Shown here: in pieces, positions 1,314-50,769 of the stretch
Layout: each line of letters starts with the position of its first letter
Position numbering within the stretch: position 1 is the stretch's first letter
NCBI GenBank assembly: GCA_012270995.1
Contig: JAAXHG010000062.1
Span: 25,881-89,880 of the forward strand
Direction: 5' to 3'
Source of the DNA: Vicinamibacteraceae bacterium
GTDB lineage: Bacteria; Acidobacteriota; Thermoanaerobaculia; Multivoradales; Multivoraceae
Length of the DNA: 64,000 bases
Position numbers and translations under genes: made by a program
The notes under the pieces: generated by a model
Told to the model about the DNA's origin: nothing
What the model saw: only the letters and a program-made list of their open reading frames with translations
The model's database searches: none

Positions 1314-2423
1314 ATGCAGACGAAGCTCCCCGAGCTGACGATCGGCATCGAGGAGGAGTACCAGATCATCGACCCCGAAACACGGGAGTTGAAGCCCTTC
1401 ATCCAGGAGTTCCTTGAACAGGGCCAGATCGTGCTCCAGGAGCAGATCAAGGCGGAGCAGCTGCAGTGCCAGGTCGAGGTCGGCAGCGAGGTCTGCCGGT
1501 CGATCGACGAGGCCCGCCAGGAGCTCATCCGGCTTCGACGTTCCATTGCCCATCTGGCGTCGAGAAACGGCCTCCGCATCGCGGCCGCCAGCACCCATCC
1601 CTTCTCCTCCTGGCAGGAGCAGGACGTCACGGAAGCGCAGCGCTACATCACGATGCAGGAGACCTTCGGCGACGTGGCGCGGCGACTGCTGATCTTCGGC
1701 ATGCACGTCCACGTAGGCATTCCCGACCGCAACCTGCGGTTGGACATCATGGACCAGTCGCTCTACTTCCTTCCGCACCTGCTCGCCCTGTCGACCAGCT
1801 CGCCGTTCTGGCAGGGCCGCAACACGGGACTCAAGTCCTACCGCTCGGTCGTCTTCGAGAGCCTCCCCCGCTCCGGCCTGCCGCCGTCGCTTCGGTCCTA
1901 CGCCGAGTACGAGCGGCTGGTCGATGTTCTGGTCCAGACCAGGTGCATCGAGGAACCGACCCAAATCTGGTGGGATGTCCGGCCCCATCCAAAGTTCCCG
2001 ACGATCGAGTTTCGGGTCTGCGACGTCTGCACGAAGATCGACGAGGCGCTTTGCCTCACCGCGCTTCTGATGGCGATCGTGGCCAAGCTGATCCGTCTGC
2101 GCCACAACAACCAGGCTTGGCGGCGCTACCCCCGGCACCTGATCTACGAGAACAAGTGGCGGGCGATCCGCTACGGCATCGACGGCAAGCTGATCGACTT
2201 CGGCAAGGGCGAGGAGGTGCCGCTCCGGTTCCTGACCCTGGAACTACTCGAGTTCGTCGACGACGTGCTCGACGAACTCGGCGTCCGGAAGGAGGCGGAA
2301 TACGTCCACACGATCCTCGCCGAAGGCACGAGCGCCGACCGCCAGCTCAAGCGGGCCGCGACGGGCGACCTGAACGCCGTCGTCGACGGCCTGATCGAGG
2401 AGACCCGCGAGGGCTGCGAGTAG
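1314..2423 (+). CDS. Carboxylate-amine ligase, glutamate-cysteine ligase family 2 (YbdK-like)
   Basis: MQTKLPELTIGIEEEYQIIDPETREL...STHPFSSWQEQ...GMHVHVG matches GCS2 family N-terminal and catalytic motifs. AGGAGAAG RBS 5 nt upstream of ATG 1314. Divergent from ggt. Confidence 0.8.
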   Translation: MQTKLPELTIGIEEEYQIIDPETRELKPFIQEFLEQGQIVLQEQIKAEQLQCQVEVGSEVCRSIDEARQELIRLRRSIAHLASRNGLRIAAASTHPFSSWQEQDVTEAQRYITMQETFGDVARRLLIFGMHVHVGIPDRNLRLDIMDQSLYFLPHLLALSTSSPFWQGRNTGLKSYRSVVFESLPRSGLPPSLRSYAEYERLVDVLVQTRCIEEPTQIWWDVRPHPKFPTIEFRVCDVCTKIDEALCLTALLMAIVAKLIRLRHNNQAWRRYPRHLIYENKWRAIRYGIDGKLIDFGKGEEVPLRFLTLELLEFVDDVLDELGVRKEAEYVHTILAEGTSADRQLKRAATGDLNAVVDGLIEETREGCE

Positions 2424-2443
2424 CGAAGCGAGTCACCCGTCTG

Positions 2444-2613
2444 CGCCGGGGTCCGGAGGGGAGGGTCCCAGCGGCCGCTCGCGCTCCCTGAGTAGTGGGG
2501 AGGTTGGCGCTCGCTGCGGTCGGCTGCGCTCCGGTTGGGCGTCGGACGTTGAGATGTCGCTGGGCGTCGCTTGCCGACAGCCTCGCTGGGACCCTCCCCT
2601 CCGGACCCCGGCG
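2444..2613. repeat. MITE-like palindromic element, copy 1 (30-bp perfect terminal inverted repeats)
   Basis: cgccggggtccggaggggagggtcccagcg at 2444-2473 is the exact reverse complement of 2584-2613. The core GGGTCCCAGNGGCCGCTCGC...GCTCGCTGCGGTCGGCTGCGCTCCGGTT...GGCGTCGCTTGCCGACAGCC...CTGGGACCC recurs at 47849-48015. Confidence 0.65.
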
Positions 2614-2654
2614 CAGACTGGACGGCGTCGGACTGCGGCGCGTGGAGAACCAGC

Positions 2655-3785
2655 TCAGTCGTTGCGTGACGCGGGTGCTGCTCTGGGGCGGCCGGCGATG
2701 AGAACGACAGGCACGACGAGCAGGGCGACTACGAGGCCGGGTGCAACAAAGGGAGGAAGGACCCAGATGCGGTTGCCGCCGGCGGGGCTTTCGTAGGTCG
2801 GGACGAGGACCGCGCCCTCCTGCTGCAGGCGCTGGACCCTGTCGGCGGGGAAAGCGTGCCGCAGGCTGCCGTCGGGATTCCGAACTTCCTCCAGTACGGC
2901 CGGGTAGTAGCGGTTGAGGATTGCCTCTTCAGCAGCGGCGGTCGGCCAGTCTTCGGCGTCGAAGGCTTCGTTCCGGGCCTGGACGTGCCAGGTGGCCTCG
3001 TTGAGGAAGTGATCCTGGATCTGCCAGGGCTGGAAGGGCGGCAGCGGCGGCTGCTTCGCGGACCAGCGGGTACGGCGGCCTTCGTTCAGGTGCTCGAGCA
3101 GGCCGGCGGTGTAGTAGCTGCGGAAGCTGCCGAGTTCCGGGTCCTCGATGAGGCGGCCGAGGTTCGTGCGGTCGACGAGGAGGAACGAAGCGGCGACGAG
3201 CCAGAGCCACAGGACCGCGATCATCTTGCGTTCGCCTGAGGTGGGCGCCACGAAGTCGAACCCGAACAGGCCCGCCCCGAAGACGACCCCGCAGCCGCCG
3301 GCCGAAGCGTTCAGCAGGCAGTCGTAGAAGTCGCCGACGCGGGTCCAGACCAGCCACTGGACGAACTCGTCCGCGACTCCGACCAGGGAAGTCAGGACCG
3401 CCGCGGAGAACGCTGCTGCGATCGCCGATCGGCCGCCACGGAGGAAGGCCCGGTAGAGCAGCAGAGCGACGACACCGTAGAGAACCAGGTGCATCCGCTC
3501 GAGGGCGGATTCTTCGGGACGGCCGCGGGCGAGTGCTGTCGCCTGCACGGCCGCCCACAGCAGACCGAGCGCCATCGCGATCCAGTTCTTCCATCGCAGG
3601 CGTCTTGCCGAACGCACCACCCAGACCGCGAACGCCGCGGCGGCGACCCAGAACAGGATCGTCGGCACGATCACGAGGAGCGAACGGTCGATTTCCTCCT
3701 GAATCCACCGGGTGAGCCGACCCAGGAAGGGCGCCGAACCGACGATCCACAGGGCAATCAGGGCAGGTGCCGCAAACCGGCGCAT
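2655..3785 (-). CDS. VanZ-like family membrane protein with C-terminal extracytoplasmic extension
   Basis: Start taken at internal Met MRRFAAPALIALWIVG, the first hydrophobic segment. Multiple TM helices. VGVADEFVQWLVWTRVGDFYDCLLNASAGGCGVVFG resembles the VanZ DExxQ...R..D...N..G core. Confidence 0.5.
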   Translation of the reverse strand: MRRFAAPALIALWIVGSAPFLGRLTRWIQEEIDRSLLVIVPTILFWVAAAAFAVWVVRSARRLRWKNWIAMALGLLWAAVQATALARGRPEESALERMHLVLYGVVALLLYRAFLRGGRSAIAAAFSAAVLTSLVGVADEFVQWLVWTRVGDFYDCLLNASAGGCGVVFGAGLFGFDFVAPTSGERKMIAVLWLWLVAASFLLVDRTNLGRLIEDPELGSFRSYYTAGLLEHLNEGRRTRWSAKQPPLPPFQPWQIQDHFLNEATWHVQARNEAFDAEDWPTAAAEEAILNRYYPAVLEEVRNPDGSLRHAFPADRVQRLQQEGAVLVPTYESPAGGNRIWVLPPFVAPGLVVALLVVPVVLIAGRPRAAPASRND

Positions 3786-3831
3786 CGGTGGAAGGACGCT
3801 AGCAGTCCGACGTTGACCGGAGTGTAGGCTC

Positions 3832-4932
3832 TTGGCAGGAGGTAGCAGGGAGCACATGGCGGAGCCAGCGCGAATCGACACTCACGGCACGGAAACAACC
3901 CCGAATCGCCGAGCCGTCTCGGCCAACAGCGGCGGCAGCCTGAGGGAGGCGCTCGACGACTTTCTCGAGATCAGGGAGTTCGTCGCGACACAGGAAGACG
4001 GAGATCGCGCCCTCCGCGATCAACCGGCGATGGTGAGTCGTTTCTACGATGTCGTCACCAGGTTCTATGAGTACGGTTGGGGCCAGTCCTTCCACTTCGC
4101 TCCTCGTCGATCCGGCGAAGGACTCCACGCCGCGCAGCACCGTCTGCAGGCTGGGGTGGCCGACATCCTGGGGTTGGGGCCGGGCGCCAGGGTCGCCGAT
4201 TTCGGGTGCGGCGTCGGCGGACCGCTGATCAACATCGCGAAGACCACCGGCGCCAGGATCACGGGCCTGAATCTGAACGCGCACCAGATCGCGAGAGCCG
4301 AACGCGCAGTGCGCGGAGCGGGGCTTCAGGACACATGCGGCTTCCTGCTCGCCAACTTCATGGACGTGCCTCTCGACGACGGCCACTTCGACGCGGCCTA
4401 CTCGTACGAAGCGATCTGCCATGCACCCCACAAGGACCGCTGCTTCAGGGAGTTCTTTCGGCTGCTGAAGCCCGGCGGCCAGATCGCCCTGACCGAGTGG
4501 TGTCTGACCGAACGCTTCGAAGCGAGCGACCCCATCCATCGGGACATCCGCGACCGCGTCGAACTGACGAACGCGGTGCCCAACCTGCTTACGGCTTCTC
4601 AGTTGGTCGACGCGATGAAGGAGGCCGGCTTCAAGGTTCTCTCGGCGAAGGACAAAGCCGCCGAGAGCGACCCGGGTTGGCCCTGGTACCGGTCGCTCCA
4701 GGGCCGTGACCTCTCGCTCGCGTCGCTCGGACGGATTCCGGTCGGCCGATGGTTCACGGCCAGGGCGACCAGTCTGCTGGAACTGCTCCGCATCGCGCCC
4801 GCCGGCACCGGCGAAGCCGCCCGCATCCTCAACGTGGCGGCCGACTCCCTGGTCGAGGCCGGCGTGGCGGGGATCTTCACGCCGTCCTTCCTGATCCACG
4901 CGCGCAAACCGGGCAACCCGGTCTCTTCGTAG
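3832..4932 (+). CDS. Sterol 24-C-methyltransferase (ERG6/SMT1-like class I SAM methyltransferase)
   Basis: YEYGWGQSFHFAPR (SMT region I; ERG6 has YEYGWGSSFHF). SAM-binding VADFGCGVGGP. SYEAICHAP (ERG6 EATCHAP). LLKPGGQIALTEWCLTERFEASDPIHRDI and C-terminal FTPSFLIHARKP (ERG6 FTPMMLFVARKP). Colinear with ERG6 over the full ~360 aa. Alternative start at M9 (3856). Confidence 0.8.
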   Translation: MAGGSREHMAEPARIDTHGTETTPNRRAVSANSGGSLREALDDFLEIREFVATQEDGDRALRDQPAMVSRFYDVVTRFYEYGWGQSFHFAPRRSGEGLHAAQHRLQAGVADILGLGPGARVADFGCGVGGPLINIAKTTGARITGLNLNAHQIARAERAVRGAGLQDTCGFLLANFMDVPLDDGHFDAAYSYEAICHAPHKDRCFREFFRLLKPGGQIALTEWCLTERFEASDPIHRDIRDRVELTNAVPNLLTASQLVDAMKEAGFKVLSAKDKAAESDPGWPWYRSLQGRDLSLASLGRIPVGRWFTARATSLLELLRIAPAGTGEAARILNVAADSLVEAGVAGIFTPSFLIHARKPGNPVSS

Positions 4933-4948
4933 CGATTGGAGGTCCGTC

Positions 4949-6103
4949 ATGGCCTTCAGGACTCGCGGTTCAAGGCGCCGGGAACCGCCGACATCCGACG
5001 ACCTGCGTCTTGCCGGCTATCCCCATCCCTATCCGGACGGCTGGTACCGGCTGATGACGTCGAAGTCGCTCGGTCGCGGGCAGATCCGCTACCTCGAGTG
5101 CCTTGGCCGCGCACTGGTCGTGTGGCGGAGCAAAGACGGCGACGACGTGCACGCCATGCAGGCGTTCTGCCCCCACCTGGGTGCCAACCTCCGGCATGGC
5201 CGCGTTCGCAAGAACCGCATCGAATGCCCGTTCCACAACTGGCAGTTCACCGGCGACGGCCGGGCGGCCTGCGTGCCCTACAGCGACAGCGTGCCGTCCC
5301 GCGTCGCGGCCGACAGCTTCCCCGTCCAGGACGTGAACGGGCAGATCTTCCTCTATCACCGCGCCGACGCGGCCAGGCAGCGGGCCGGCGACGACGTCCC
5401 CTACCCGGTTCCCCGCATCCCGGAACTCGACGACGGGAGCTTCGCGTACCGCGGGCACCATGACGCCGGACGCGTTCGCATGCACATCGTCGAGTTCCTC
5501 GAGAACACGGCCGACTTCGCCCATTTCAAGTACATCCACAGCCAGATGACGGTGCCGTGGACGCAAATCCCCGTTCCCGGCGTCCAGCTCGAACACAGGC
5601 CGGGCTGGGAACTGGACGACGACCGGCCCTGGAGGCTGTACTTCCTCGACGAGACCGTGCTCAAGGTTCGCGGCCGCCGTCTCGAACGAACCCGGGCAAA
5701 CGCCAGGGTCACCTGCACCGGCCCGGCCAGCATCATCAACTTCAGGATCACGATCCCCGGCACCGGCGAGGTCGAGATCGTTCAGACCCACCTTCCGGTC
5801 GCGCCGCTCGAGCAGCAGGTCGACTTCCACTGGTTCGCCGACCGCCGGATGCCGCGCCTGCTCGTGTGGTATGTCGTCGGCAACTGGATCTCCCAGTGGC
5901 AGCACGACATCCAGATCTGGGAGAACAAGAGCTACACGACGCACCCGACGCTGTGCCGCGACGACGGGCCGGTCATCCGGCTGCGGCGCTGGTACCGGCA
6001 ATTTTTTGCGGACTGGCAACCGCCGGCCGCGCCGCGCGAGACGCCGCCGAAGGTCCCGCGTAAGCGGGCTGAACGCTCGCTCGTCGGCACGGCTTCGAAC
6101 TGA
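4949..6103 (+). CDS. Rieske [2Fe-2S] non-heme iron oxygenase, KshA/Neverland(DAF-36)-like; putative sterol-modifying oxygenase
   Basis: Rieske motif CPHLGANLRHGRV-x-IECPFHNWQF (CXH-x17-CXXH). N-terminal GWYRLMTSKSL. ~250 aa C-terminal catalytic domain. No dioxygenase beta subunit or ferredoxin adjacent. 17 nt downstream of the SMT on the same strand. Confidence 0.7.
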   Translation: MAFRTRGSRRREPPTSDDLRLAGYPHPYPDGWYRLMTSKSLGRGQIRYLECLGRALVVWRSKDGDDVHAMQAFCPHLGANLRHGRVRKNRIECPFHNWQFTGDGRAACVPYSDSVPSRVAADSFPVQDVNGQIFLYHRADAARQRAGDDVPYPVPRIPELDDGSFAYRGHHDAGRVRMHIVEFLENTADFAHFKYIHSQMTVPWTQIPVPGVQLEHRPGWELDDDRPWRLYFLDETVLKVRGRRLERTRANARVTCTGPASIINFRITIPGTGEVEIVQTHLPVAPLEQQVDFHWFADRRMPRLLVWYVVGNWISQWQHDIQIWENKSYTTHPTLCRDDGPVIRLRRWYRQFFADWQPPAAPRETPPKVPRKRAERSLVGTASN

Positions 6104-6136
6104 CCGACCCCGCTGCCCGCTGCTAGCCTTCCGGCG

Positions 6137-7255
6137 ATGGTCGGTTTCCGCCTGATCTGCATCCTGCTGGCCGGCCTGACCGTCCAGGCACCGGCGGCCG
6201 ATCCGGAGTCCAACCCGGTGATGCGCATCGAGCGCTGGATCGAGGGTGGCGCCCGGGTCGACTGGTCCCGCCAGGGTGAGTGGCTGGCCTACGACAAGGC
6301 CGGAGCGGATGGCCGCTACGACGTCTACGTGACCTCCACCGACCGGCTCGCCGAGCGCTGTCTCACATGCGACATGTACGCGCTACGCAAGGACAACGTC
6401 CTCAATCCGGTGTGGCACCCCGCCGGAGAGCGGCTGATCGTCCAGGTCCAGAGCCATCCCAAGCGGCTCAAGTTCATGGCAAACCCCCTGCAGCTCCTGA
6501 CCCCCGACCGCGCCCTGCACAGTGAGTTCTACGACATCGACCGCAAGGGCAAGGACTTCACGATGCTGACCCGCTTCGCCGCCAGCGGCACCGCGGCGCT
6601 CGACCCCCACTTCTCGTTCGACGGCGAGCGACTGCTGTGGAGCGAGCGGATCAAGGCGCGAAAGGGGCGCTACGGCGCCTGGCAGCTACGCAGCGCCCGG
6701 TTCCAGGTCAACCGCGTCGGCACCCCGCAGTTGAAGAAGATCAGGTCCCACTCCGCGCCGGCCGACGCGCTGATCGTGCCCCAGGGATACATGCCCGACG
6801 ACCGCGGCGCCCTCGTCGCGGCGAACCTGGAACCCGGCCAGTCGCCCGACACGCTCGACCTCTACCGGCTGCGCTTCGACGGCGGCGAGCCCGAGCGCCT
6901 CACCCACTCCCGGAACGGCGCCGACGAGTACGTCCGCCTGTCGCCCACCGGCCGGCACCTCGCCTTCACCTCGAGCGCCGGGATTCGCGGCACCGAGCCC
7001 GATCAGATGGTGCCTGCCTCTGCCCGGCGCGAGCTGTGGCTGATGGACGCGGACGGCTCGAACAAGCGCCGGCTCACGTTCTTCAACGACCCGACTTCCG
7101 AGCACAGCCTCGGCCACACCTACGTCGGCGACCTGGCCTGGAGCCCGGGCGGCGACCAGATCGCCGTCCACGTCCTCTGGGGCGGCAGCCGCAACGGCGA
7201 CCGCCCGCGGGAGGCGTTGTACCGTATCCATCTCGACCCCTCGTTCCGGCGCTGA
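6137..7255 (+). CDS. Secreted TolB-like/WD40-like beta-propeller repeat protein
   Basis: Signal peptide MVGFRLICILLAGLTVQAPAA. Repeated YDVYVT / LWLMDADGS / RLTFFND blocks typical of PD40/TolB propellers. Confidence 0.5.
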   Translation: MVGFRLICILLAGLTVQAPAADPESNPVMRIERWIEGGARVDWSRQGEWLAYDKAGADGRYDVYVTSTDRLAERCLTCDMYALRKDNVLNPVWHPAGERLIVQVQSHPKRLKFMANPLQLLTPDRALHSEFYDIDRKGKDFTMLTRFAASGTAALDPHFSFDGERLLWSERIKARKGRYGAWQLRSARFQVNRVGTPQLKKIRSHSAPADALIVPQGYMPDDRGALVAANLEPGQSPDTLDLYRLRFDGGEPERLTHSRNGADEYVRLSPTGRHLAFTSSAGIRGTEPDQMVPASARRELWLMDADGSNKRRLTFFNDPTSEHSLGHTYVGDLAWSPGGDQIAVHVLWGGSRNGDRPREALYRIHLDPSFRR

Positions 7256-7294
7256 CGCCGCCGCAACCGGTACTCACCCAACCGAGGAACCTGC

Positions 7295-8644
7295 ATGAGA
7301 ACACGACGCCGTCTGTTCACGGTCGCACTGTTGCTGGCCCTGGCTTTGCCGGCCCTTCCCGCCGCTGCCCAGGACGACCCCCACGTCTTCCGCAGCGCGC
7401 AACTGCTGCCGATCACAGGGGAGCCGATCGACGACGGCGTCCTCGTCGTCCAGGGCGGCAGGATCACGGAGGTCGGTGGACCCGACACGCGCACCCCCCG
7501 CGGCGCCGTCGAGCACGACGTCAGCGGCAAGGTGCTGATGCCCGGGCTCGTCGACACTCACTCCCACATCGGTTCGGTCTCCGGCGGCGACCGCTCGGCG
7601 CCGCTGCACCCGGACGTGCGGAACCTGGACTCGATCGACGTCGCCTCCGACAGCATCTGGCGGGCCCGATCCGGCGGCATCACGACAGTCAACATCATGT
7701 CGGGCTCCGGCCACCTGATGTCCGGCCAGACCGCCTACGTCAAGCTGCGCGACGGCGCCCGCACGATCGAGGACTGGCTCTACTGCGACGATCCCCTGAC
7801 CGGCATCTGCGGCGGCCTGAAGATGGCGAACGGCACGAACTCGATCGGCTCGCCGCCCTTCCCCGGCACCCGCGCGAAATCGGCGGCCCTGGTCCGCAAC
7901 CTCTACCACGAGGCCGTGGAGTACCGGGACAAGATGGCCGCCGCCGAGGCCGAAGAGAACGATGAGGACGGCGGCGCACCGGCGAAGCGCGACCTGCGGA
8001 TGGAGGCCCTGGTCGAGGTGCTCGACGGCAAGCGGATCGTCCAGCACCACACCCATCGCCACAACGACATCGCCACCGTCCTGCGGCTCAAGGAGGAATT
8101 CGGGTTCCGGGTCGTCGTCCAGCACGGCACGGAGTCCTGGAAGGTCGCCGAGGAACTGGCCGCCGCCGGCGTGCCGGTGTCGATCACCTGGATCGACGCA
8201 CCGGGCGGCAAGGAGGAGACGATCGACTGGAACATGGAGATGGGCGCGATCCTTGAACGCGCCGGTGTCGACGTCAGCTTCAACACGGACGACTCGGTGA
8301 CCGACTCGCGCCTCCTGTTCCGGGCGGCCGCGATCGCGGTCCGCTACGGCATGTCGCGCGAGAAGGCGATCGAGGGACTGACTCTCGCGCCGGCGCGGGC
8401 GCTCGGGCTCGAGGACCGGATCGGCTCGCTCGAGGCCGGCAAGGACGCCGACTTCGTCATCCTCTCCGGCGATCCGCTCAGCACCTATACGAAGGTCGAG
8501 CAGACCTGGGTCGAGGGGACGATGATCTACGACCGGGCCAACCCGGACCACCGAAAGTACGCCGTGGGCGGCTACAAGGTCTACCGCACGACCGCCCACG
8601 AAGACCACATGATCCGGCAGTTGCTCGAGGGAGAGTCACGATGA
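7295..8644 (+). CDS. Amidohydrolase family metal-dependent hydrolase (secreted)
   Basis: Signal peptide. LMPGLVDTHSHIG (HxH metal site). C-terminal GSLEAGKDADFVIL motif of the amidohydrolase superfamily. Confidence 0.7.
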   Translation: MRTRRRLFTVALLLALALPALPAAAQDDPHVFRSAQLLPITGEPIDDGVLVVQGGRITEVGGPDTRTPRGAVEHDVSGKVLMPGLVDTHSHIGSVSGGDRSAPLHPDVRNLDSIDVASDSIWRARSGGITTVNIMSGSGHLMSGQTAYVKLRDGARTIEDWLYCDDPLTGICGGLKMANGTNSIGSPPFPGTRAKSAALVRNLYHEAVEYRDKMAAAEAEENDEDGGAPAKRDLRMEALVEVLDGKRIVQHHTHRHNDIATVLRLKEEFGFRVVVQHGTESWKVAEELAAAGVPVSITWIDAPGGKEETIDWNMEMGAILERAGVDVSFNTDDSVTDSRLLFRAAAIAVRYGMSREKAIEGLTLAPARALGLEDRIGSLEAGKDADFVILSGDPLSTYTKVEQTWVEGTMIYDRANPDHRKYAVGGYKVYRTTAHEDHMIRQLLEGESR

Positions 8645-9936
8645 AGCGTCTGGGCACGACCTCCTTCTTCGTCCCGGCCGTCCTGCTTGCCGCCCTTGCC
8701 GTGACTCCGGCCGCGGCCCAGGTGACGGTCCGGGCCGGCACCCTCCACACCGTGTCCGGCGCGCCGATCGAAAACGCCGTCGTCATCGCCGGCGCCGACG
8801 GCACGATTGAGTGGGTCGGCCCCGCGGCCGAAGCGAACATTCCTGACGGCGTGGACGTCCTCGAAGCCGCCGTCGTTACGCCCGGACTCGTCGACGCCCG
8901 CTCGGTCGTCGGCCTCTCCGGCGCCCTGAACAGCAACGTCGGCCCGGTGCGCGACCAGGACCAGCTCGAACGGTCGTCGCCGCTCCAGCCCGACCTGCGG
9001 GCGATCGACGCCTACGACGCGAACGAGACCCTGGTCGAGTGGGTCCGCTCGTACGGCGTTACGACGCTCCACACCGGCCACGGGCCGGGGGCCCTGGTCA
9101 GCGGCCAGACGATGATCGCCAAGACCAGGGGCCGCAACGTCGAACAGGCCACCCTGATGCCGGTGCGGATGCTGGCGGCGACGCTCGGCAACGCGGTGTC
9201 CTCGAACTTCCAGTCGCCGGGGACGTCGGCCAAGGGCATCGCGATGCTCCGGTCCGCCCTTCACGGTGCCCAGGCCTACCTCGACCAAGTGCGCAAGGCG
9301 GAGGAGGCCGGCGGCGACGAGAACGGAGGAGACAGCGGTGACGGCGAGGAGGACGGCGACGCGAAGCCGTCACCCCAGCCGCCGCCCAGGGACCTCTCCA
9401 AGGAAGCACTCGGCCAGGTGCTCGACGGCGAACTTTCCCTGCTGGTCACCGCGAACACCGTGGCCGAGATGGCCTCGGCGCTCCGCCTGCAGCAGGAGTT
9501 CGGGTTCGACCTCGTGCTCGACAGCGCCGCCGAGTCCTACCTGCTGCTCGAGGAGATCCGCGAGGCCGGCGTGCCGGTCCTGCTCCACCCGACGATGAGC
9601 AGGGTCCGCAACGGCTCCTACGAGACCGCCGCCACCCTCGCCGATGCCGGCATACCGTTCGCCATCCAGACCGGTTTCGAGGGCTACGTGCCCAAGACGC
9701 GCGTCCTGCTCTGGGAGGCGGCCATCGCCGCCGCCAACGGCCTCGGCATGGAACGGGCGCTGGAGGCAGTCACCCTGAGCCCGGCACGCATCCTCGGCAT
9801 CGACGACCGCGTCGGCTCGATCGAGGTCGGCAAGGACGCCGACCTCGCCCTCTTTGACGGCGACCCGTTCGAGTACACGAGCCACATCTGCGGCGTGATC
9901 ATCGAGTCGGAGGTGATGTCGGCGGAGTGCCGGTAG
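8641..9936 (+). CDS. Amidohydrolase family protein (paralogous partner, secreted)
   Basis: ATGA start/stop overlap with the upstream amidohydrolase. Signal peptide. TPGLVDARS and GSIEVGKDADLALFDGDPFE motifs. Paired amidohydrolase architecture. Confidence 0.7.
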   Translation: MKRLGTTSFFVPAVLLAALAVTPAAAQVTVRAGTLHTVSGAPIENAVVIAGADGTIEWVGPAAEANIPDGVDVLEAAVVTPGLVDARSVVGLSGALNSNVGPVRDQDQLERSSPLQPDLRAIDAYDANETLVEWVRSYGVTTLHTGHGPGALVSGQTMIAKTRGRNVEQATLMPVRMLAATLGNAVSSNFQSPGTSAKGIAMLRSALHGAQAYLDQVRKAEEAGGDENGGDSGDGEEDGDAKPSPQPPPRDLSKEALGQVLDGELSLLVTANTVAEMASALRLQQEFGFDLVLDSAAESYLLLEEIREAGVPVLLHPTMSRVRNGSYETAATLADAGIPFAIQTGFEGYVPKTRVLLWEAAIAAANGLGMERALEAVTLSPARILGIDDRVGSIEVGKDADLALFDGDPFEYTSHICGVIIESEVMSAECR

Positions 9937-11602: not shown

Positions 11603-12988
11603 TTACTGGTTGTCACCCGCCGCCGGCTGCGGGAACTCCGGCAGCCCGCGTTCGAGCCACACGCCCGCCTGCATCACACGGTCGATCTGCCTCGTGTTGC
11701 GGATGTCCGCCAGGGGATCGGCGGAGAGCAGAACCAGGTCCGCCGCCATTCCCTCGGCGATCGAGCCGAAGTCTGGTTCCTCGGTGAGTTCAGCGGCCGC
11801 GGCGGCGCCGGCCGCCGCCAGGGTCTCAAGCGGCGTCAAGCCGCCTTCTTCGACGAGGGTTTCCAGCTCATGGTGCGTGCCCCAGCCGTAGGCGATGTTG
11901 CCGGCGCCGCTGTCGGAGCCGACAGTGATCGTGGCTCCAGCTTCGTTCATGCGGCGGATGAACTTCGTCACGTAGTCGTATGCGACCCGCCGTTTGGCGG
12001 TCGACTCGCTCTTCAGCATCGCGGCTCGGTTCTCGGGATCGAGTAGTCGTTCGAGCAGGGCTGGTTGAAGTCCGGCCCGGAACTCCTCGTCCTCGAGCAG
12101 CTCCGGGTGCTCGGCGACCCACCAGAAGGTCTTGGCCTGACCGAGCGCGGGCGCGAACGAGAGCCCCTTCTCTTGCACCATGGCGACGAACTCGTCGTCG
12201 ACCTCCTGGTCGCGGACGCCGTGGACGAAGAAGCGGACCCCAGCGTCGACCAGTTGCCAGACGTCCTCCTCGAAGAAGACGTGGGCCGAAACCGGGATGT
12301 CGTGCCGCGAGGCCTGGTCGGCGATGGCGGCGCGGATCTCGGGCCCGATCTTCGGCCGTGTGTCGAGGAAGGTGTCGACCCACATCTTGATCAGGTCGAC
12401 TTCCTGAGCGGCGAGTTCGCGCACCATCGCGCGGGCTTCCTCTTCGGTGGCCGGACCCAGCTTGCCCGGTGGAAAGCCCTCGGGGTGCGTGAAGCCGACC
12501 CCGGCGGTGAAGATGCGGGGCGCCGGCACGATGCCGGCACGTGCCTCGTCGATCTTCGCGGGCGTCTGACCATGGTCCGAGCCGAGGCTGCGGACGGTCA
12601 GCACGCCGGCGTGGAGCTGCAACGCCCAGGACCACTCCTCCAGGCCGTCGCGGTAGTGGTTGTGGAGGTCGACGAGACCGGGGATCAGGAACTTGCCCGC
12701 GGCGTCGATGACTTCTCCGCCCTCGGGCACCAGCACATCGGCGCGCGAGCCGGCATGCTCGATCCGGTCGCCGCGGACGATGACGACGGCGTCCTCGATC
12801 GGCGGTGCGCCAGTGCCGTCGATCAGGGTGGCGCCGGCGATCGTGATCGTGCCGGTGCCGTCGATGGCGGGTTGGTCGGCGGTGCAGCCGGAAAGCGCAG
12901 CGGCGAGTGCAATAGCGATTGCGAAGAGCCGGAACGGATCCGGATGCCGGCCAGAACCCGGGTGGCGCGAATCCGCGCCACCCGTGAC
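11603..12988 (-). CDS. Amidohydrolase family lipoprotein
   Basis: Lipobox-like LAAALSGC. LIPGLVDLHNHY (HxH). C-terminal EGMAADLVLLSADPL. GTG start inferred at 12988, where the signal peptide begins. The first ~120 codons of the six-frame ORF are compositional junk. Confidence 0.65.
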   Translation of the reverse strand, partial: VTGGADSRHPGSGRHPDPFRLFAIAIALAAALSGCTADQPAIDGTGTITIAGATLIDGTGAPPIEDAVVIVRGDRIEHAGSRADVLVPEGGEVIDAAGKFLIPGLVDLHNHYRDGLEEWSWALQLHAGVLTVRSLGSDHGQTPAKIDEARAGIVPAPRIFTAGVGFTHPEGFPPGKLGPATEEEARAMVRELAAQEVDLIKMWVDTFLDTRPKIGPEIRAAIADQASRHDIPVSAHVFFEEDVWQLVDAGVRFFVHGVRDQEVDDEFVAMVQEKGLSFAPALGQAKTFWWVAEHPELLEDEEFRAGLQPALLERLLDPENRAAMLKSESTAKRRVAYDYVTKFIRRMNEAGATITVGSDSGAGNIAYGWGTHHELETLVEEGGLTPLETLAAAGAAAAAELTEEPDFGSIAEGMAADLVLLSADPLADIRNTRQIDRVMQAGVWLERGLPEFPQPAAGDNQ

Positions 12989-13065
12989 CCAGTCCGCGCG
13001 CCCGTCATCGGGCGCACGGATGACAGGCCGGCGAACCCAGTGGTTGAACCCCGTGTGCGGTCCAA

Positions 13066-14145
13066 TCACTCGAGGAACACTTCGGCGATCGCGATGCCGC
13101 TCTCGCCGGCCACGGCGTAGAGGAGGAAGACGCGGCCGTCCTCCTCGTAGATCGCGGGATCGCGCAACTGGTTCACCTTTCCATAGGCGGTGCTGCGAAC
13201 AGACGGCTCGAGCGGCGCGTTGGCGCCTTCCCAGTCGCGCTCGGGCCGGAGCACTTCGACCGGTTCGGACTCGGTCCAGTCCATCCAGTCGCCGGAGAGG
13301 TCGATGCTGCTCAGCAGGATCCGTTCCGGCGCCTCCCCGACCTGCGTCCAGAACACCCACAGGGTGTCGCCGCGGAGCAGCACGGCAGAATGCCGCATGT
13401 CCGGGTTGAACAGCAACGGTCCCTCCTCGAAGTCGGTGAAGCCGTCAGCCGAGCGGTAGAACTGTCCGGGCATGGCGAGGGAGTAGGTCATGCCGCCGTA
13501 TTGGAAGATCCGCATGTAGGTGCGGCCCAGTGACTGGGGCTGGGCTTCGAAATCGATGCCGTCGGTCGAAGTGGCGACCCGCGAGATCTGCCTGCCGACG
13601 TCCTCCAGGCCGTGGAAGTACATGACGATCCGCTGGTTCTCATCGTCGACATGCACGTCGGGCGACGCGATGTGGGTTGCCGTGATCTCCTTCTGGATGT
13701 CGTGGGAGAGCTTCAGGCCCCGGCGCTCCTCCCACTCGGCAACCATCTCGGGCGTCACCTCCGGCGGCTCGACCAGGAAGTGGGAGTCCTCGATCTGCAG
13801 GCTCCCGGGGACGTGGATCGACCACGGCCCAAGCAGGTAGTCGGCGTAGGCGAGCCGGATGTAGTGGCCCTTGTGGTCGGCGAAGTAGAGGTAGTAGAGG
13901 CCGAGCGGGTCGGAAACCCAGTCGGGCACGCGGATCAGGGACGGTCCCTGGATGTTCTCTCCGATGCTTGGGTCGAGCGCCGGCCCGATGATCGGTGCGT
14001 CGAGGAGCCGTTCGACGCGGACGGAGGACCCGGTGTCGGTCGGCGGGTCGGCGTCAGCGGCCGGTTCGGCGTCCGGCGTCGCGCAGGCCAGGGCGGTGAG
14101 TGAGGCGGTGAAGGAGAGGACCAAGAGGGACGGCCCCGCTCTCAT
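13066..14145 (-). CDS. Secreted hypothetical protein, GH43/GH130-like beta-propeller fold suspected
   Basis: Signal peptide MRAGPSLLVLSFTASLTALAC. LRDPAIYEEDGRVFLLYAVAGESGIA and GPSLIRVPDW...YYLYFADHKG resemble 5-bladed propeller glycosidase/phosphorylase blades. Weak. Confidence 0.35.
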   Translation of the reverse strand: MRAGPSLLVLSFTASLTALACATPDAEPAADADPPTDTGSSVRVERLLDAPIIGPALDPSIGENIQGPSLIRVPDWVSDPLGLYYLYFADHKGHYIRLAYADYLLGPWSIHVPGSLQIEDSHFLVEPPEVTPEMVAEWEERRGLKLSHDIQKEITATHIASPDVHVDDENQRIVMYFHGLEDVGRQISRVATSTDGIDFEAQPQSLGRTYMRIFQYGGMTYSLAMPGQFYRSADGFTDFEEGPLLFNPDMRHSAVLLRGDTLWVFWTQVGEAPERILLSSIDLSGDWMDWTESEPVEVLRPERDWEGANAPLEPSVRSTAYGKVNQLRDPAIYEEDGRVFLLYAVAGESGIAIAEVFLE

Positions 14146-19745: not shown

Positions 19746-20162
19746 TTGCCGCTCCAACGCGTCGTGGTCGACGCGAGCGCCGCTCTCAAATGGGTCCTTG
19801 AAGAGGAAGGCAGCGCCGCGGCGCGCGACCTTCTGGACCGGGAAGTCCTTCACGCCCCGGACTTCCTGCTGCTGGAAGTAGCGAACGTACTCTGGGCGAA
19901 GGTGCGCCGCGGCGTTCTGTCACGAGTTGATGCCGATACCGCCTTCCACGCGCTGGCCGCGGTACCGATCGTGATCATGCCGCTGGCTGAACTCATCCGG
20001 CCGGCCCGTACCCTGGCCTTCGCCCTGGACTTGACCGTCTACGACGCCGTGTACGCCGCGCTGGCTCAACGACTCGACTGCCCGCTCGCCACCGCCGACG
20101 AGAAGCTCGCCCAAGCCATGGCGACCGCCCACCTCACCGGGTCGGCACATCTCATTCGTTAG
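19746..20162 (+). CDS. vapC: PIN-domain toxin VapC/FitB-like
   Basis: VVVDASAALKWVLEEE...FLLLEVANVL...YDAVYAALAQRL carries PIN acidic residues. 6 nt after the antitoxin stop. Confidence 0.7.
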   Translation: MPLQRVVVDASAALKWVLEEEGSAAARDLLDREVLHAPDFLLLEVANVLWAKVRRGVLSRVDADTAFHALAAVPIVIMPLAELIRPARTLAFALDLTVYDAVYAALAQRLDCPLATADEKLAQAMATAHLTGSAHLIR

Positions 20163-26464: not shown

Positions 26465-27000
26465 CAGAACGACGAACCAGGCTCCCGCAGAAAGGCGATC
26501 TCCTCCTCGGTCGAGGGGCGGCCGAGGACGCGGTTGCGGTGCGGATAGCGCCCGAAGCGATCGATGATCGCCTTGTGCCGCATCTCGAAGTCCAGGGTCT
26601 CCGGCTCGTCGAGGCTCTCGAACAGCGGGATCGCGGCCTCGTGGATTCCGGCTGACTCGCTGTGTTCGTAGGGCATGTAGAAGAACCGCCGCCTGTCCGG
26701 GGAGACCGCCTGATCGGCGCCGGTCCGGACCGCCTCCTGCGCGAGCGCCAGGGCCATGCCGTCGGCCGCGAAGGCGCGCGGGTCGTCGCGGTAGAGGTTG
26801 CGCGAGAACTGGTCGAGCACGATGATCTCCGCGAGGCGCCCTTGCGGCGTGTCACGCCATGCGTACAGCTCCCCCCGGACCGCCCGGTCGTGCAATGTTC
26901 CGAACCGCGAACGGATCGCGGCGTCGAACCGCGGATCGCTGTTCCACCACTCCTCGGGACCACTCTCCTCAAACCAGAAAGACAGGACTTCTTCGATCAC
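26464..27000 (-). CDS. DUF924 (YbaA-like) family protein
   Basis: MIEEVLSFWFEESGPEEWW...DQFSRNLYRD matches the DUF924 N-terminal consensus. Confidence 0.65.
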   Translation of the reverse strand: MIEEVLSFWFEESGPEEWWNSDPRFDAAIRSRFGTLHDRAVRGELYAWRDTPQGRLAEIIVLDQFSRNLYRDDPRAFAADGMALALAQEAVRTGADQAVSPDRRRFFYMPYEHSESAGIHEAAIPLFESLDEPETLDFEMRHKAIIDRFGRYPHRNRVLGRPSTEEEIAFLREPGSSF

Positions 27001-27084
27001 GGCTCCGCTCCTCTCGGGGCCAGAGCACTCTCACTCGACGGCCAGGAACGACGCGGCAGCCGTCGGTTAGTCTCTACGCTCCCC

Positions 27085-30000: not shown

Positions 30001-30384
30001 AACCGCGAGCACTCGATGGTCCGCCGGGAGCGCACGAACACGCCGCTCCAGGCGCTGGTCACCATGAACGACACGCAGTTCGTCGAGGCGTCGCGCTTCC
30101 TCGCCCAGCGAGCGATGCGCGAAGCCGGCGACGACTTCGACCGCCGCCTCGACTACCTCACGACTCGACTCCTGGCCAGGGACTTCAACGACTCGGAGCG
30201 GGCGGTAGCGCGACGGACGTATGACGGCCTGATCGACCTCTACGGCACGGACGAGGCGGCGGCCAGGCAGCTCGTCGACGTCGGCGAGTCGGCCCACGAC
30301 GCCGGCCTGCCCATGTCCGAGTCCGCGGCCTGGACGATGATGGCGAGCCAGTTGATGAACCTGGACGAGTCCCTGAACAAGTAG
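27085..30384 (+). CDS. PSD1-type large protein: PSCyt1 (planctomycete cytochrome c-like) + DUF1549 + LamG-like + DUF1553
   Basis: Start [12 protein letters not shown] is signal-like. [21 protein letters not shown] (PSCyt1). DUF1549 block [36 protein letters not shown]. LamG-like [22 protein letters not shown]1553 C-terminus. Confidence 0.7.
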
Positions 30385-30398
30385 CCGGAGGACCTGGG

Positions 30399-33994: not shown

Positions 33995-35247
33995 TCAGTC
34001 GATACGGAGCCGGTCGAACTCATCCCAGGCGGACATGTCAGACAGAACGACCTGATCGCCCGGAACCAATCCGTCCAGCACCTCGATCGTGTTGGCGGAG
34101 CTTCTGCCCAGGAACACACGCGTTCGGGTAGCGCCGTTTCCTTCGCCGTCCAGTCGGAAGAGACCGACCTCGCTCTCTTCCTGGCCGACGACGGGCCGGC
34201 CGACGAAGACCACATCCTCCAGCCGGTCGAGTTCGATCGTGCCGGCCACGGTCAGGTCCGGCCGGGCGCCGCGCGGCAGGTCGCCTTCCAGTGCAACGTC
34301 GACGGTCACCGTCCCCTCTTCGACCGCCGGATCGATCCTGACCACCCTGCCGGGGACGACGCCGTTTCGCGTGTCGACCGCGGCGACTTGCCCGATCTGA
34401 ACGTCCTTCGCCTGGGTTTCGGCGATTCGCAGTTCGGCCTTCAGCGCGGTCGGGTCTCCGACGCGGGCCAGACTCGTGCCCGCGGAAACGCGCTGCCCCT
34501 CCTCGACCGGCACCTGCTGGAGGACGCCGTACATGCCGGCGCGGACCCGCAGGGCCGCGACCTGATCGAGCCTGAGTTGCCAGATCGCGCGTAGACGATC
34601 CACTTCCGCCTGCTCGACCGCGAGCTTGGCCGCCTTCGTCGTTTCCGCGATGCCGAGGCGCTCCTCCTCCAGGGCGAAGCGCGTTTCATGTTCCCGCTTC
34701 GACGCCTGCGCCCGCTGGAGTTCGATCGCCGAAGCCAGACCGTCCTTCGCCAGCTCGGCGTCGGCGTCCGCCTCGAGCCGGGCCACGACCAGTGCAGCCT
34801 CCACGCTGGCGAGCCCCGCCTTCTGCATCAGCAGCTCGCTCTCAAGTTCGACCTTCCGGTTCTCGTAGCGGGCCTCGGCGGCGCGCAGGTTGAGCTCCGC
34901 TTCCCTGGCCTGGTGCTCAAGTTCCGGGTTGCTCAGTTCGACGATCACCGAGTCCGGCGTCACTTCGGCGCCGGGGTCGATCGCGATCCTCTCGACGGTG
35001 CCTTCCGTCGAGGCCGGAATCCACCGGATGTTCTCCGGTACCAGCGTTCCCCGCCCCCGGACTTCCCGCACCATCGGGCCCCGTCGCACCGTGTCGATGT
35101 AGAGATCGTCGCGGTCGACGCGCGGCGCCGACGGCTGCACCTGCTGCAGACCGAGCGTGACCAGTACGAGCAGGAAGCCCCCGAGGGAGTAGTACGTCAC
35201 CCGGCGAACCTTCTTCTTCCGCGCCAGGTCCGGTCTCGCGACGTCCA

Positions 35248-35248
<1 letters not shown>
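33995..35248 (-). CDS. HlyD/MacA family periplasmic adaptor (membrane fusion protein)
   Basis: N-terminal TM. Long coiled-coil (EARYENRKVELESELLMQKAGL...). Beta-barrel/MPD C-terminus. 1-nt overlap with the upstream ABC ATPase. Confidence 0.75.
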
Positions 35249-35919
<671 letters not shown>

Positions 35920-35961
35920 GGTGTAGACAATCTACGTCACATGGAGTAGCTTGTCTACATC

Positions 35962-36303: not shown

Positions 36304-36316
36304 GCCCTGAGACCAG

Positions 36317-39037: not shown

Positions 39038-39051
39038 CACCACCTAACCGG

Positions 39052-50766: not shown

Positions 50767-50769
50767 CGG

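Follow-up and report, generated by a model that had tools for sequence, protein, structure and literature searches.

We describe a two-gene operon of an uncultured acidobacterium in which the gene of a sterol 24-C-methyltransferase (SMT) is followed by that of a Neverland-type Rieske oxygenase, and we regard it, with about even confidence, as a sterol-tailoring operon that probably acts on exogenous sterols. It was found in a window of 64,000 nucleotides, which is the whole stretch of DNA analysed, and its features are listed in Table 1. The host, called Acidobacteria-like in an earlier note on this DNA, was placed in the Thermoanaerobaculia / Ca. Multivorans group, and its close relatives are presumably for the most part sponge-associated MAGs. 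Bacterial SMTs are already known, and activity has been demonstrated for enzymes from sponge symbionts and from uncultured bacteria (Brown, Olagunju, Giner and Welander, Nat Commun 2023, PMC10070321; Brown and Welander, 2025 preprint); it is the Neverland-type partner and the cassette that appear to be undescribed. Our literature search, which included searches by symbiont genera, gave no report of an SMT and Neverland-type Rieske pair in bacteria, as the earlier note had supposed in speaking of an undescribed module. A Neverland-type Rieske partner is mentioned in neither the 2023 nor the 2025 work of Brown, and the only Rieske protein of the 2023 paper is SdmA.

Table 1. Features of the SMT/Rieske locus (positions in the window)
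Feature	Position	Strand	Basis
SMT/Rieske two-gene operon	3856-6103	+	
Divergent intergenic region, VanZ-like gene to SMT gene	3788..3855	.	Direct sequence reading
Sterol 24-C-methyltransferase (SMT, ERG6/SMT1 family), 358 aa	3856..4932	+	Pfam, ERG6 alignment
Spacer between SMT and Rieske genes, 16 nt, with GGAGG	4933..4948	+	Direct sequence reading
Neverland/DAF-36-type Rieske non-heme-iron oxygenase, 384 aa, Rieske [2Fe-2S] and KshA_C catalytic domains	4949..6103	+	Pfam, ligands

Gene arrangement and the methyltransferase

Two ORFs on the forward strand had been noted before, with the Rieske gene 17 bp downstream of the SMT gene; the ORFs and their strand stand, and the gap was corrected to 16 nt. 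The start of the SMT gene was also revised. The longest ORF runs from a TTG at 3832, the start given earlier, to 4932 on the + strand, but the true start is probably the ATG at 3856, because relatives of the protein have 357-358 aa and the ribosome-binding motifs GGAGG (3839-3843) and AGGGAG (3847-3852) precede that ATG. The VanZ-like gene upstream, on the minus strand, has a maximal ORF of 408 aa against 375-376 aa in its relatives, and its start is probably near 3787. The divergent region between the two genes is presumed to be the SMT promoter region, and its role is put no more firmly than this because no match to the sigma-70 consensus was found in it. At the junction of the two genes, a Shine-Dalgarno GGAGG (4938-4942) sits 6 nt before the Rieske ATG and no terminator-like site was found between the genes, a spacer that fits an operon junction.

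The first ORF is a full-length member of the SMT family, for which sterol methylation activity is predicted. It contains the motifs YEYGWGQSFHF, VADFGCGVGGP, SYEAICHAP and LKPGG, and is colinear with yeast ERG6 over 364 columns at 35% identity, the ERG6 reference agreeing with 28 published residue numbers. Regions I-IV are present and aligned, as YEYGWGQSFHF, DFGCGVGGP, YEA (E193, equivalent to ERG6 E195) and LKPGG (ERG6 Gly217). Pfam detected, above its cutoffs, a class I methyltransferase domain (Methyltransf_11, E 3e-20, residues 123-219; also Methyltransf_25) and Sterol_MT_C (PF08498, E 9e-19, residues 303-360). The full length, the four regions, the C-terminal domain and the colinearity all bear out the SMT identity proposed in the earlier note, and the profile search and ERG6 comparison suggested there as checks gave the Sterol_MT_C match and retained Regions II and III. 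The accompanying remark on the rarity of bacterial SMTs no longer holds for metagenomes, with 7,966 SMT homologs in IMG (PMC10070321) and 1,785 matches at E<=1e-10 in our own search, some of which JGI labels "sterol 24-C-methyltransferase".

The protein resembles the SMTs of Brown and Welander in its methyltransferase and Sterol_MT_C domains, in Regions I-IV and in its sponge-metagenome setting, and it agrees with the SMTs proven functional by assay (Brown and Welander 2025) at each of their 25 conserved residues (25/25). It differs from them at a position that bears on the product. In propylating (24-isopropyl-forming) bacterial SMTs, Gly249 is necessary, together with Phe at 81 and/or 83, and G249N mutants still form C28 and C29 sterols but no C30 sterols. 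The window SMT has Y81, Y83 and N249 in ERG6 numbering and does not carry this signature, and N249 is present in 39/39 Rieske-linked SMTs. Asn249 predicts, at the level of sequence, methylation or ethylation rather than propylation.

The Rieske oxygenase and its relatives

The second ORF matches the Pfam domains Rieske (E 2e-21) and KshA_C (E 2e-23). Rieske centres follow the pattern C-x-H-x16-17-C-x-x-H and the associated non-heme iron sites the pattern (E/D)-x3-D-x2-H-x4-H. The protein has C74-P-H76...C93-P-F-H96, with 16 residues between His and Cys (CXH-X16-CXXH), for the former and E185-NTA-D189-FA-H192-FKYI-H197, plus D320, for the latter; C74, H76, C93, H96, D189, H192, H197 and D320 are invariant in an alignment of 45 sequences. 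Its AlphaFold model (pLDDT 88) has KshA as best PDB match, with TM 0.67-0.72 at an identity of 22-25%, and KshA itself scores 125 bits against the protein in phmmer. The two domains and this match uphold the earlier description of a sterol-type Rieske protein. In terms of sequence, it is a Neverland-type sterol Rieske oxygenase with intact catalytic residues and predicted activity.

The Neverland assignment comes from the comparison with eukaryotic proteins, which stand in here for the experimentally characterised Neverland sequences of fly, worm and silkworm. A rotifer protein named cholesterol 7-desaturase matches the window protein with 238 bits (BLASTP, 34% identity, residues 24-354), and the same rotifer protein reaches only 128 bits against KshA. 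Relatives of the window protein are named "cholesterol 7-dehydrogenase" by JGI. Outside the bacterial family, the nearest representatives are all eukaryotic (Gefionella, Leptophrys, Corallochytrium, Heterolobosea, Colponema and Syssomonas), at 31-45% identity, a level from which the regiochemistry of the oxygenase cannot be read. In a KshA-rooted neighbour-joining tree drawn without support values, the bacterial family forms a single clade within this eukaryotic radiation. Similarity to Neverland/DAF-36 (EC 1.14.19.21, animals and protists) is colinear over about 330 residues and includes the Rieske and iron motifs and a C-terminal helix with the Asp ligand. The eukaryotic proteins, however, have an N-terminal anchor or extension of 60-370 residues, whereas the window protein has about 20 residues ahead of the conserved core, no hydrophobic N-terminus and no membrane anchor, and is encoded in an operon with an SMT.

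The earlier note had grouped the protein under a KshA / Neverland / SdmA type. The Neverland part of this assignment stands, but identity with SdmA was ruled out by the NCBIfam scores, and orthology with KshA by sequence identity and gene context. SdmA is the bacterial Rieske-type sterol C-4 methyl oxidase (Lee et al. 2018; NCBIfam NF052579). Although also a bacterial sterol Rieske oxygenase and the top NCBIfam match of the window protein, its model gives only 53.8 bits where the cutoff is 600, over residues 32-201, that is, the Rieske domain; seven further members of the family score 42-60 bits. In contrast, the genuine homologs of sdmA known from clusters of sponge symbionts share 44-47% identity with MCA1016 and lie beside sdmB, and no SdmB-like or 3β-HSD-type gene is adjacent to the window Rieske gene. 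KshA (PDB 2ZYL, 4QCK, 4QDC, 4QDF) shares the two-domain fold and the metal ligands, but the window is devoid of KshB, KstD, Hsa and any 9,10-seco catabolic context. The term "single-component", used earlier for the whole type, is inaccurate for KshA, which depends on KshB.

We also considered, and rejected, a fusion of SMT and Rieske domains in relatives of 560-800 aa, in which the Rieske domain begins at residue 220-420. None of the 10 proteins searched has a Pfam methyltransferase domain, and the long relatives, where the source could be traced, are eukaryotic proteins with unannotated N-termini.

Recurrence of the gene pair

The pair is a conserved and mobile module whose recurrence is far beyond chance, because it is found in 42 of 78 loci, in several phyla and with unrelated flanks. 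These counts refer to species-level genomes in which the two genes lie no more than 10 kb apart, the SMT nearly always directly upstream; the genomic context of the window SMT itself was drawn from relatives at 89-95%. Acidobacteriota, Gemmatimonadota, Acidimicrobiia, Chloroflexota, Gammaproteobacteria and Myxococcota all have the pair, and the SMT is the sole neighbour of the Rieske gene common to several phyla. We take the paired loci to be mostly from sponge MAGs, going largely by record titles and bin-name prefixes. The sponge link is verified for the Sarcotragus foetidus metagenome LXNI01, which is the source of one 69%-identical SMT relative and was also sampled by Brown and Welander. 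In most paired loci the two genes are separated by between -4 nt (a 4-nt overlap) and +18 nt. In an Acidimicrobiaceae MAG, for instance, the two genes overlap by 4 bp and their surroundings are wholly different, and a gammaproteobacterial MAG has the pair in convergent arrangement. In a second lineage (Rieske 48%, SMT 41% identical) the order of the pair is reversed, the genes being TetR, Rieske, SMT and a flavin/4Fe-4S oxidoreductase, and a gene for a START lipid/sterol-binding protein follows a Rieske relative of 33% identity. A third shared gene was sought and rejected: the beta-propeller and amidohydrolase genes downstream reflect acidobacterial synteny only, and CoA-transferase, PhyH and MFS genes occur as neighbours in Dehalococcoidia only.

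The Rieske partner as such occurs in 375 species genomes. In 36 of the 78 loci, about half, no SMT lies within 10 kb. Several genomes have two Rieske paralogs, so that members of the family may differ in function. Homologs are present in the sterol producers Enhygromyxa, Plesiocystis and Nannocystis, that of E. salina being 52-54% identical and located outside its sterol cluster. No sterol cluster surrounds these myxobacterial homologs, whose neighbours include M49 peptidase, DksA, aldehyde dehydrogenase and GlnA. Three distant Rieske relatives (P0277, P0280 and P0282) lie on short contigs and were uninformative.

Possible substrates and products

Regarding the chemistry, we infer the substrates, the regiochemistry of the oxygenase, the order of the two reactions and the exogenous origin of the sterols. 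With SAM, the SMT would add one, possibly two, carbons to C-24 of a Δ24 sterol side chain, for example converting desmosterol into 24-methylene/24-methyl sterols. The Rieske enzyme would receive electrons from an unlinked ferredoxin/reductase and, with O2 at its mononuclear iron, would oxidise these same sterols, most likely by a 7,8-desaturation from Δ5 to Δ5,7; both enzymes together would yield 24-alkyl Δ5,7 sterols. Because the cassette has spread among phylogenetically unrelated bacteria unaccompanied by the sterol core pathway, the substrates are probably host or dietary sterols. A parallel is offered by C. elegans, a sterol auxotroph in which DAF-36 (a Rieske 7-desaturase) and STRM-1 (a sterol methyltransferase of the SMT family) tailor dietary cholesterol. 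This functional logic may be like that of the proposed cassette, but STRM-1 methylates C-4 of the sterol nucleus and not the side chain, and the nematode genes are unlinked.

The absence of core genes was surveyed with Pfam on 48 GC3-called genes and with six-frame motif scans. In agreement with what had been noted before for oxidosqualene cyclase, squalene epoxidase and CYP51, no oxidosqualene or squalene-hopene cyclase (OSC, SHC), squalene epoxidase or P450/CYP51 was found in the 64-kb window, nor any sterol reductase, Rieske reductase partner or steroid-catabolism gene. An OSC or SHC motif is found in none of 86 related loci (±10 kb), and P450 motifs in three Nannocystis loci only. It is nevertheless possible, if on the whole unlikely, that the pair finishes sterols made de novo by its own host, with OSC and demethylases dispersed elsewhere in the genome. 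Brown et al. found an OSC in the cluster or MAG of 13/24 metagenomic SMTs tested (PMC10070321), some acidobacteria are among the bacteria listed with sterol-demethylation homologs, and cultured sterol producers have the Rieske family. Besides the missing cyclase, two points argue against a dispersed pathway. The clustered SMTs of Brown and Welander and of other known producers adjoin OSC/SQMO, CYP51, ERG24 and sdmA/sdmB, and the combination of OSC/SQMO with CYP51, ERG24 or sdmAB near the SMT does not occur within the 64 kb, where the SMT adjoins the Neverland-type gene; and the pair moves alone across phyla. Under a dispersed de novo pathway the operon would be merely a new member of a known pathway.

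A question of its own is the position at which the oxygenase acts. A sterol hydroxylase, or a desaturase for another position (C-25/C-26 hydroxylation, Δ22 or Δ25 desaturation, or the making of the double bond that the SMT uses), is an unlikely but credible reading, and it would lead to an oxysterol or to a 24-alkyl sterol with its unsaturation elsewhere. E. salina, one of the bacteria with a Rieske homolog, and Calothrix are reported to release 25-hydroxycholesterol along with further hydroxysterols; no Δ5,7 product is reported from E. salina, and its sterols fit a hydroxylase at least as well as a desaturase. KshA relatives hydroxylate, the two paralogs per genome suggest diversified regiochemistry, and side-chain chemistry would suit tight coupling to a side-chain enzyme. 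These observations single out no particular position, however, the closest named relatives are 7-desaturases, and Δ5,7 sterols are abundant in host sponges. In Dictyoceratida such sterols are dominant, including 24-methyl and 24-ethyl forms, and have been traced to an unidentified "7-dehydrogenase" that would convert Δ5 sterols from the diet (PMC3039464); in Ircinia mutans, 7-dehydrocholesterol occurs together with ergosterol and 24-methyldesmosterol (PMC8168774).

Taking the 7-desaturase reading further, we put forward as a speculation, and a rather doubtful one, that the cassette is the molecular basis of this postulated sponge activity, coupled to 24-alkylation. Symbionts of many phyla, and not (or not only) the sponge, would then convert host or dietary Δ5 sterols into the 24-methyl and 24-ethyl Δ5,7 sterols typical of dictyoceratid sponges, by means of a horizontally spreading module of eukaryotic ancestry; sponges may also carry a Neverland gene of their own. 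If true, part of the sponge sterol chemotaxonomy and of the 24-alkyl sterane precursors would be due to tailoring by bacteria that do not make sterols. Side-chain-alkylated steranes are read as biomarkers of eukaryotes and sponges, a reading that weakens if bacteria make or modify the precursors. What is new here is a large SMT clade that travels in one compact operon with a sterol oxygenase of animal/protist type, and does so in symbionts without sterol-core genes in the neighbourhood. This suggests that non-producers remodel sterols, by a route that searches for OSC-containing clusters do not cover. It also provides a clonable candidate for the dictyoceratid 7-dehydrogenase, and a bacterial Neverland-type enzyme suited to expression and structure solution.

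Substrates other than sterols are improbable. SMT-like triterpene methyltransferases of Botryococcus act on squalene or botryococcene, and the lack of a sterol source encoded nearby would agree with isoprenoids that have a terminal double bond (squalene, hopanoids, carotenoids or polyprenols). Against them speak the retention of the sterol-binding Region I and of every residue conserved in sterol-active SMTs, a partner from a sterol-specific oxygenase lineage, and the associations with a START-domain gene and with sterol producers. Least probable of all, with very little weight in our view, is steroid catabolism or C-4 demethylation by a KshA-like 3-ketosteroid 9α-hydroxylase or an SdmA-like oxidase: the KshA_C domain, the PDB and NCBIfam matches and the steroid catabolism genes reported from sponge metagenomes (PMC5790920) favour it, but KshA has half the score of Neverland-type proteins, every member tested matches the SdmA model in the Rieske domain only, KshB, KstD, Hsa and SdmB genes are absent nearby, and an anabolic SMT partner does not fit catabolism.

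As a separate observation, genomes that are nearly identical in other respects have exchanged SMT alleles, a hint that the sterol product is under selection.

Gene structure and the predicted methyltransferase

Two intact enzymes of sterol-specific families, a sterol 24-C-methyltransferase (SMT, ORF1) and a Neverland-type Rieske oxygenase (ORF2), are encoded in an operon layout in the window, and their linkage is conserved across lineages. Reading of the window sequence places both ORFs on the forward strand, as the earlier note had claimed, and ORF1 contains the three motifs named there (YEYGWGQSFHF, VADFGCGVGGP and SYEAICHAP) as well as LKPGG. The limits proposed for ORF1 are those of the maximal open reading frame; translation probably starts at the internal ATG, because the gene calls of SMT relatives are 357-358 amino acids (aa) long and GGAGG/AGGGAG precedes this codon. 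The Rieske gene follows directly, after 16 nt instead of the 17 bp first given, and the gap holds GGAGG 6 nt ahead of the ORF2 ATG. No terminator-like site was found between the two genes. A GC3 of 0.83-0.88, in a genome with 68% G+C, marks both ORFs by composition as real genes.

Coordinates of features in the window and at related loci (L handles, loci around Rieske homologs in other genomes or contigs)
Feature	Position	Strand	Content or evidence
SMT gene (ORF1)	maximal ORF TTG 3832 to 4932; probable start ATG 3856	+	Pfam Sterol_MT_C (E 9e-19) and class I methyltransferase domains; motifs
Rieske gene (ORF2)	4949-6103	+	Pfam Rieske E 2e-21, KshA_C E 2e-23
Genes directly 3' of ORF2	6137-9936	+	signal-peptide β-propeller (PD40/Tricorn_N), then two amidohydrolases
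Second divergent patch	2401-2700		33-49% aligned identity to L008, inside otherwise identical sequence
SMT segment against L008	window 3600-5100; L008 8700-10150		62-83% DNA identity across SMT gene, 99-100% both sides
PSCyt gene set	26662-31865		1,240-aa PSCyt1/PSCyt2/PSD1 (DUF1549/DUF1553) protein with DUF1501 partner
Permease gene set	33995-41784		PadR regulator, then two ~900-aa MacB/FtsX permeases; ABC ATPase and HlyD-family gene divergently upstream
Toxin-antitoxin-type genes	19746-20162, 42145-42546, 50338-51423		two PIN domains, HicB-like antitoxin, FitA-like RHH
L087	4522-9507		TetR, Rieske, SMT, 719-aa flavin/4Fe-4S oxidoreductase (Pyr_redox/4Fe-4S)
L088 (also L089)	6001-7833		Rieske/KshA_C, then 33 nt on a START-domain (lipid/sterol-binding) protein
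L055; L053	7787-11176; 2209-5709		SMT, 366-aa FAD-dependent oxidoreductase (FAD_binding_3/DAO), Rieske
L006	16941-18631		FA_hydroxylase-superfamily gene (221 aa), 3β-HSD/epimerase gene (336 aa)
L079, L080, L083 (Nannocystis)	~4000-5300, 11800-13550		P450-motif ORFs both sides of Rieske homolog

The three genes downstream of the Rieske gene follow closely, at intervals of 33 and 39 nt and with one 4-nt overlap. The β-propeller and amidohydrolase genes, which may be co-transcribed with the cassette, are kept in about 20 acidobacterial loci and in no other phylum, and lie outside the cross-phylum module. The PSCyt and permease gene sets are typical of acidobacteria or planctomycetes and are unrelated to the cassette; the toxin-antitoxin-type genes are scattered.

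Bacterial SMTs as such are already known, and the SMT alone is not what is new: enzymes from sponge and environmental metagenomes carry out C-24 methylation, ethylation and propylation in vitro (Brown et al., PMC10070321). According to a 2025 preprint, 25 residues are common to all active SMTs, Gly249 is necessary for propylation and Phe81/Phe83 enhance it, and G249N mutants lost C30 products while still making those of C28 and C29. ORF1 was aligned with yeast ERG6 (35% identity over 364 columns), the ERG6 sequence used agreeing with 28 published residue numbers. All 25 residues are kept, and positions 81, 83 and 249 (ERG6 numbering) are Y, Y and N. Given N249 and the loss of C30 in the G249N mutants, ORF1 is predicted to be a methylating, perhaps ethylating, non-propylating SMT. 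The PDB holds no close SMT structure, the best matches being other small-molecule methyltransferases.

Family of the Rieske oxygenase

In a 45-member alignment of the family, the Fe-S cluster ligands (C74, H76, C93, H96) and the iron-site ligands (D189, H192, H197, D320) are invariant, and the AlphaFold model of ORF2 is confident (pLDDT 88, pTM 0.85). The earlier note had assigned the protein to a "KshA / Neverland(DAF-36) / SdmA type", of which only the Neverland-type part stands. The NCBIfam equivalog model for SdmA gives ORF2 53.8 bits, where the cutoff is 600, with the Rieske domain alone aligned. Scores of 42-60 bits were obtained for seven further members of the family, those of Enhygromyxa, Plesiocystis and Nannocystis among them. 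KshA is the best solved-structure match of the model (TM 0.67-0.72), but at an identity of only 22-25% orthology is ruled out despite the shared fold. Since the SdmA scores are so far under the cutoff and the identity to KshA is so low, the family is an ortholog of neither.

A HMMER scan of 1.84 billion representatives with ORF2 collapsed the close family to one cluster, and the next relatives among these representatives have 31-49% identity. The nameable ones are all eukaryotic: Gefionella, Leptophrys, Corallochytrium, Heterolobosea, Colponema, Syssomonas and a rotifer, whose protein bears the UniRef name "cholesterol 7-desaturase". ORF2 matches this rotifer protein over residues 24-354 with 34% identity (BLASTP, 238 bits); against KshA the two score on a par, 125 bits for ORF2 and 128 for the rotifer protein. 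Several close bacterial relatives carry the JGI name 'cholesterol 7-dehydrogenase'. In a KshA-rooted neighbour-joining tree, which has no support values, the bacterial family forms a single clade inside the Neverland-type radiation, and the myxobacterial sequences are basal within that clade. The long eukaryotic relatives were considered as SMT-Rieske fusions and rejected as such.

Carriers and linkage of the pair

The acidobacterial host proposed earlier is borne out by the window flanks, which have 99-100% DNA identity to a 3.08-Mb acidobacterial contig (L008), and by the named relatives, Thermoanaerobaculia / Ca. Multivorans. An 'Acidobacteria bacterium' MAG has, on a contig of 2.5 kb with 95% DNA identity to the window, a Rieske gene whose product is 99% identical to that of ORF2. 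With the Rieske alignment as query, a scan of 185,579 species genomes identified the family in 375. Carriers occur in Acidobacteriota (Holophagales, Vicinamibacterales, Bryobacterales), Gemmatimonadota (Longimicrobiales, Ca. Palauibacter), Acidimicrobiia (Ca. Poriferisodalis), Dehalococcoidia/Chloroflexota, Pseudomonadales and Myxococcota; many of the bins have the prefixes IRC, RHO, COS, SB06xx and jk18x, which presumably denote sponge MAG series. A 69%-identical SMT cluster has the accession LXNI01, the Sarcotragus foetidus sponge metagenome listed by Brown et al. (PMC10070321).

Many same-sized contigs appear in both the SMT and the Rieske homolog lists. Among the best 78 loci, an SMT lies within 10 kb of the Rieske gene in 42 and is the sole neighbour recurrent across phyla; in nearly all cases it immediately precedes the Rieske gene in the same orientation, and the spacing ranges between a 4-nt overlap and an 18-nt gap. 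Near acidobacterial relatives have the whole cassette neighbourhood in synteny. The pair is present on the complete chromosomes OY762911.1, OZ220742.1, OZ242353.1, OZ244864.1, OY762557.1 and OY762279.1, and on the 3.08-Mb contig of ERZ25069412. A 4-bp overlap joins the two genes in an Acidimicrobiaceae MAG, where every other neighbour is different; a gammaproteobacterial MAG (L006; study code ROBB21, presumably a sponge-microbiome dataset) has them side by side in convergent orientation. Rieske paralogs with and without a linked SMT are interleaved inside each phylum, and some genomes hold both kinds. In Enhygromyxa salina, Plesiocystis pacifica and Nannocystis, all of them sterol producers in culture, the Rieske homolog (50-54% identity) has no adjacent SMT and lies outside any sterol cluster; that of E. 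salina DSM 15201 is on contig JMCC02000029.1, within 166749-187792. Two Dehalococcoidia loci (L054, L062) contain two Rieske paralogs within 10 kb, of which just one is immediately preceded by an SMT gene. Genes for a family III CoA-transferase, a PhyH dioxygenase, an amidohydrolase, an MFS transporter and an α/β hydrolase recur around the Rieske genes in this class.

SMT-Rieske linkage is also seen in a second, divergent lineage (L087), whose Rieske and SMT proteins are 48% and 41% identical to those of the window. This SMT has D249 and is closer to ERG6 (46% identity) than to the window SMT. The adjacent 719-aa oxidoreductase could be the electron donor for the Rieske enzyme, and the locus is possibly a self-contained cassette with its own regulator and donor. 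At L088/L089 the bacterial Rieske protein (33% identical, source name 'cholesterol 7-dehydrogenase') is encoded downstream of a fatty-acid desaturase on a contig of 47% G+C.

In two loci, L055 and L053, a FAD oxidoreductase gene is inserted between SMT and Rieske genes. These MAGs are labelled 'Myxococcota' and 'Spirochaetaceae'; the 87% identity of their FAD proteins and the sister position of their Rieske genes in the tree point to recent transfer or else to a binning error. On the Ca. Poriferisodalis chromosome OZ244864.1 (L050), the precomputed Pfam list of the 398-aa Rieske protein (P0206) includes Sterol_MT_C (PF08498); the SMT and Rieske genes there overlap by 4 nt, so the entry may reflect a gene-call artefact or partial fusion.

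Between the window and L008 the SMT proteins are 75% and the adjacent Rieske proteins 95% identical, and the window-type SMT allele is found at 89-91% in other MAGs. From the sequence comparison, it looks as if the SMT alone was replaced allelically between these near-conspecific genomes; both alleles have Y81/Y83/N249. The second divergent patch has a carboxylate-amine ligase gene on one side and the 3' end of a VanZ-like gene on the other.

Sterol core genes and proposed function

As the earlier note stated, the 64 kb hold no oxidosqualene cyclase (OSC), squalene epoxidase (SQMO) or CYP51. The Pfam survey of the 48 called genes detected no triterpene cyclase, squalene epoxidase, P450, sterol reductase, SdmB, Rieske reductase or steroid-catabolism gene, and six-frame scans of the window for DCTAE (OSC), DxDDTA (squalene-hopene cyclase, SHC) and the P450 heme loop were all negative. 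OSC or SHC motifs are likewise absent from all 86 related loci, and P450 heme-loop motifs occur in only three of them, all Nannocystis, flanking the Rieske gene. The de novo clusters described by Brown et al. (PMC10070321) have the SMT beside OSC/SQMO, CYP51, ERG24 and sdmAB, whereas the window SMT lies beside none of these.

That the SMT and the Neverland-type oxygenase constitute a conserved sterol-tailoring cassette is, in our judgement, highly probable. The SMT would alkylate C-24 of a Δ24 sterol, and the oxygenase, receiving electrons from an unlinked ferredoxin system, would act oxidatively on these sterols as well, with 7,8-desaturation the likeliest reaction, giving 24-alkyl Δ5,7 sterols; for this mechanism as a whole we consider the chances about even. 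Such products would fit the host chemistry. In a dictyoceratid sponge 61% of the sterols are of the Δ5,7 type, 24-methyl and 24-ethyl forms among them; Δ5,7 sterols are typical of Ircinia and Spongia, and have been ascribed to an unidentified '7-dehydrogenase' acting on dietary Δ5 sterols, which favours 24-alkyl sterols in some families (PMC3039464). Ircinia mutans contains cholesterol, 7-dehydrocholesterol, ergosterol and 24-methyldesmosterol (PMC8168774), and the conversion of desmosterol to 24-methyldesmosterol is among the activities of bacterial SMTs (Brown et al., PMC10070321). A serious rival to the desaturase is a sterol hydroxylase, since E. salina has bound 25-hydroxycholesterol and other hydroxysterols for which the responsible enzymes are unknown, and the regiochemistry of the Rieske enzyme is not inferable at the present level of identity. 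Neither a bacterial Neverland-type family nor its operon with an SMT was found in the searchable literature, and Brown et al. (PMC10070321) make no mention of them. At L006, the FA_hydroxylase-superfamily and 3β-HSD/epimerase genes, about 6 kb from the pair, are possible further sterol-modifying genes.
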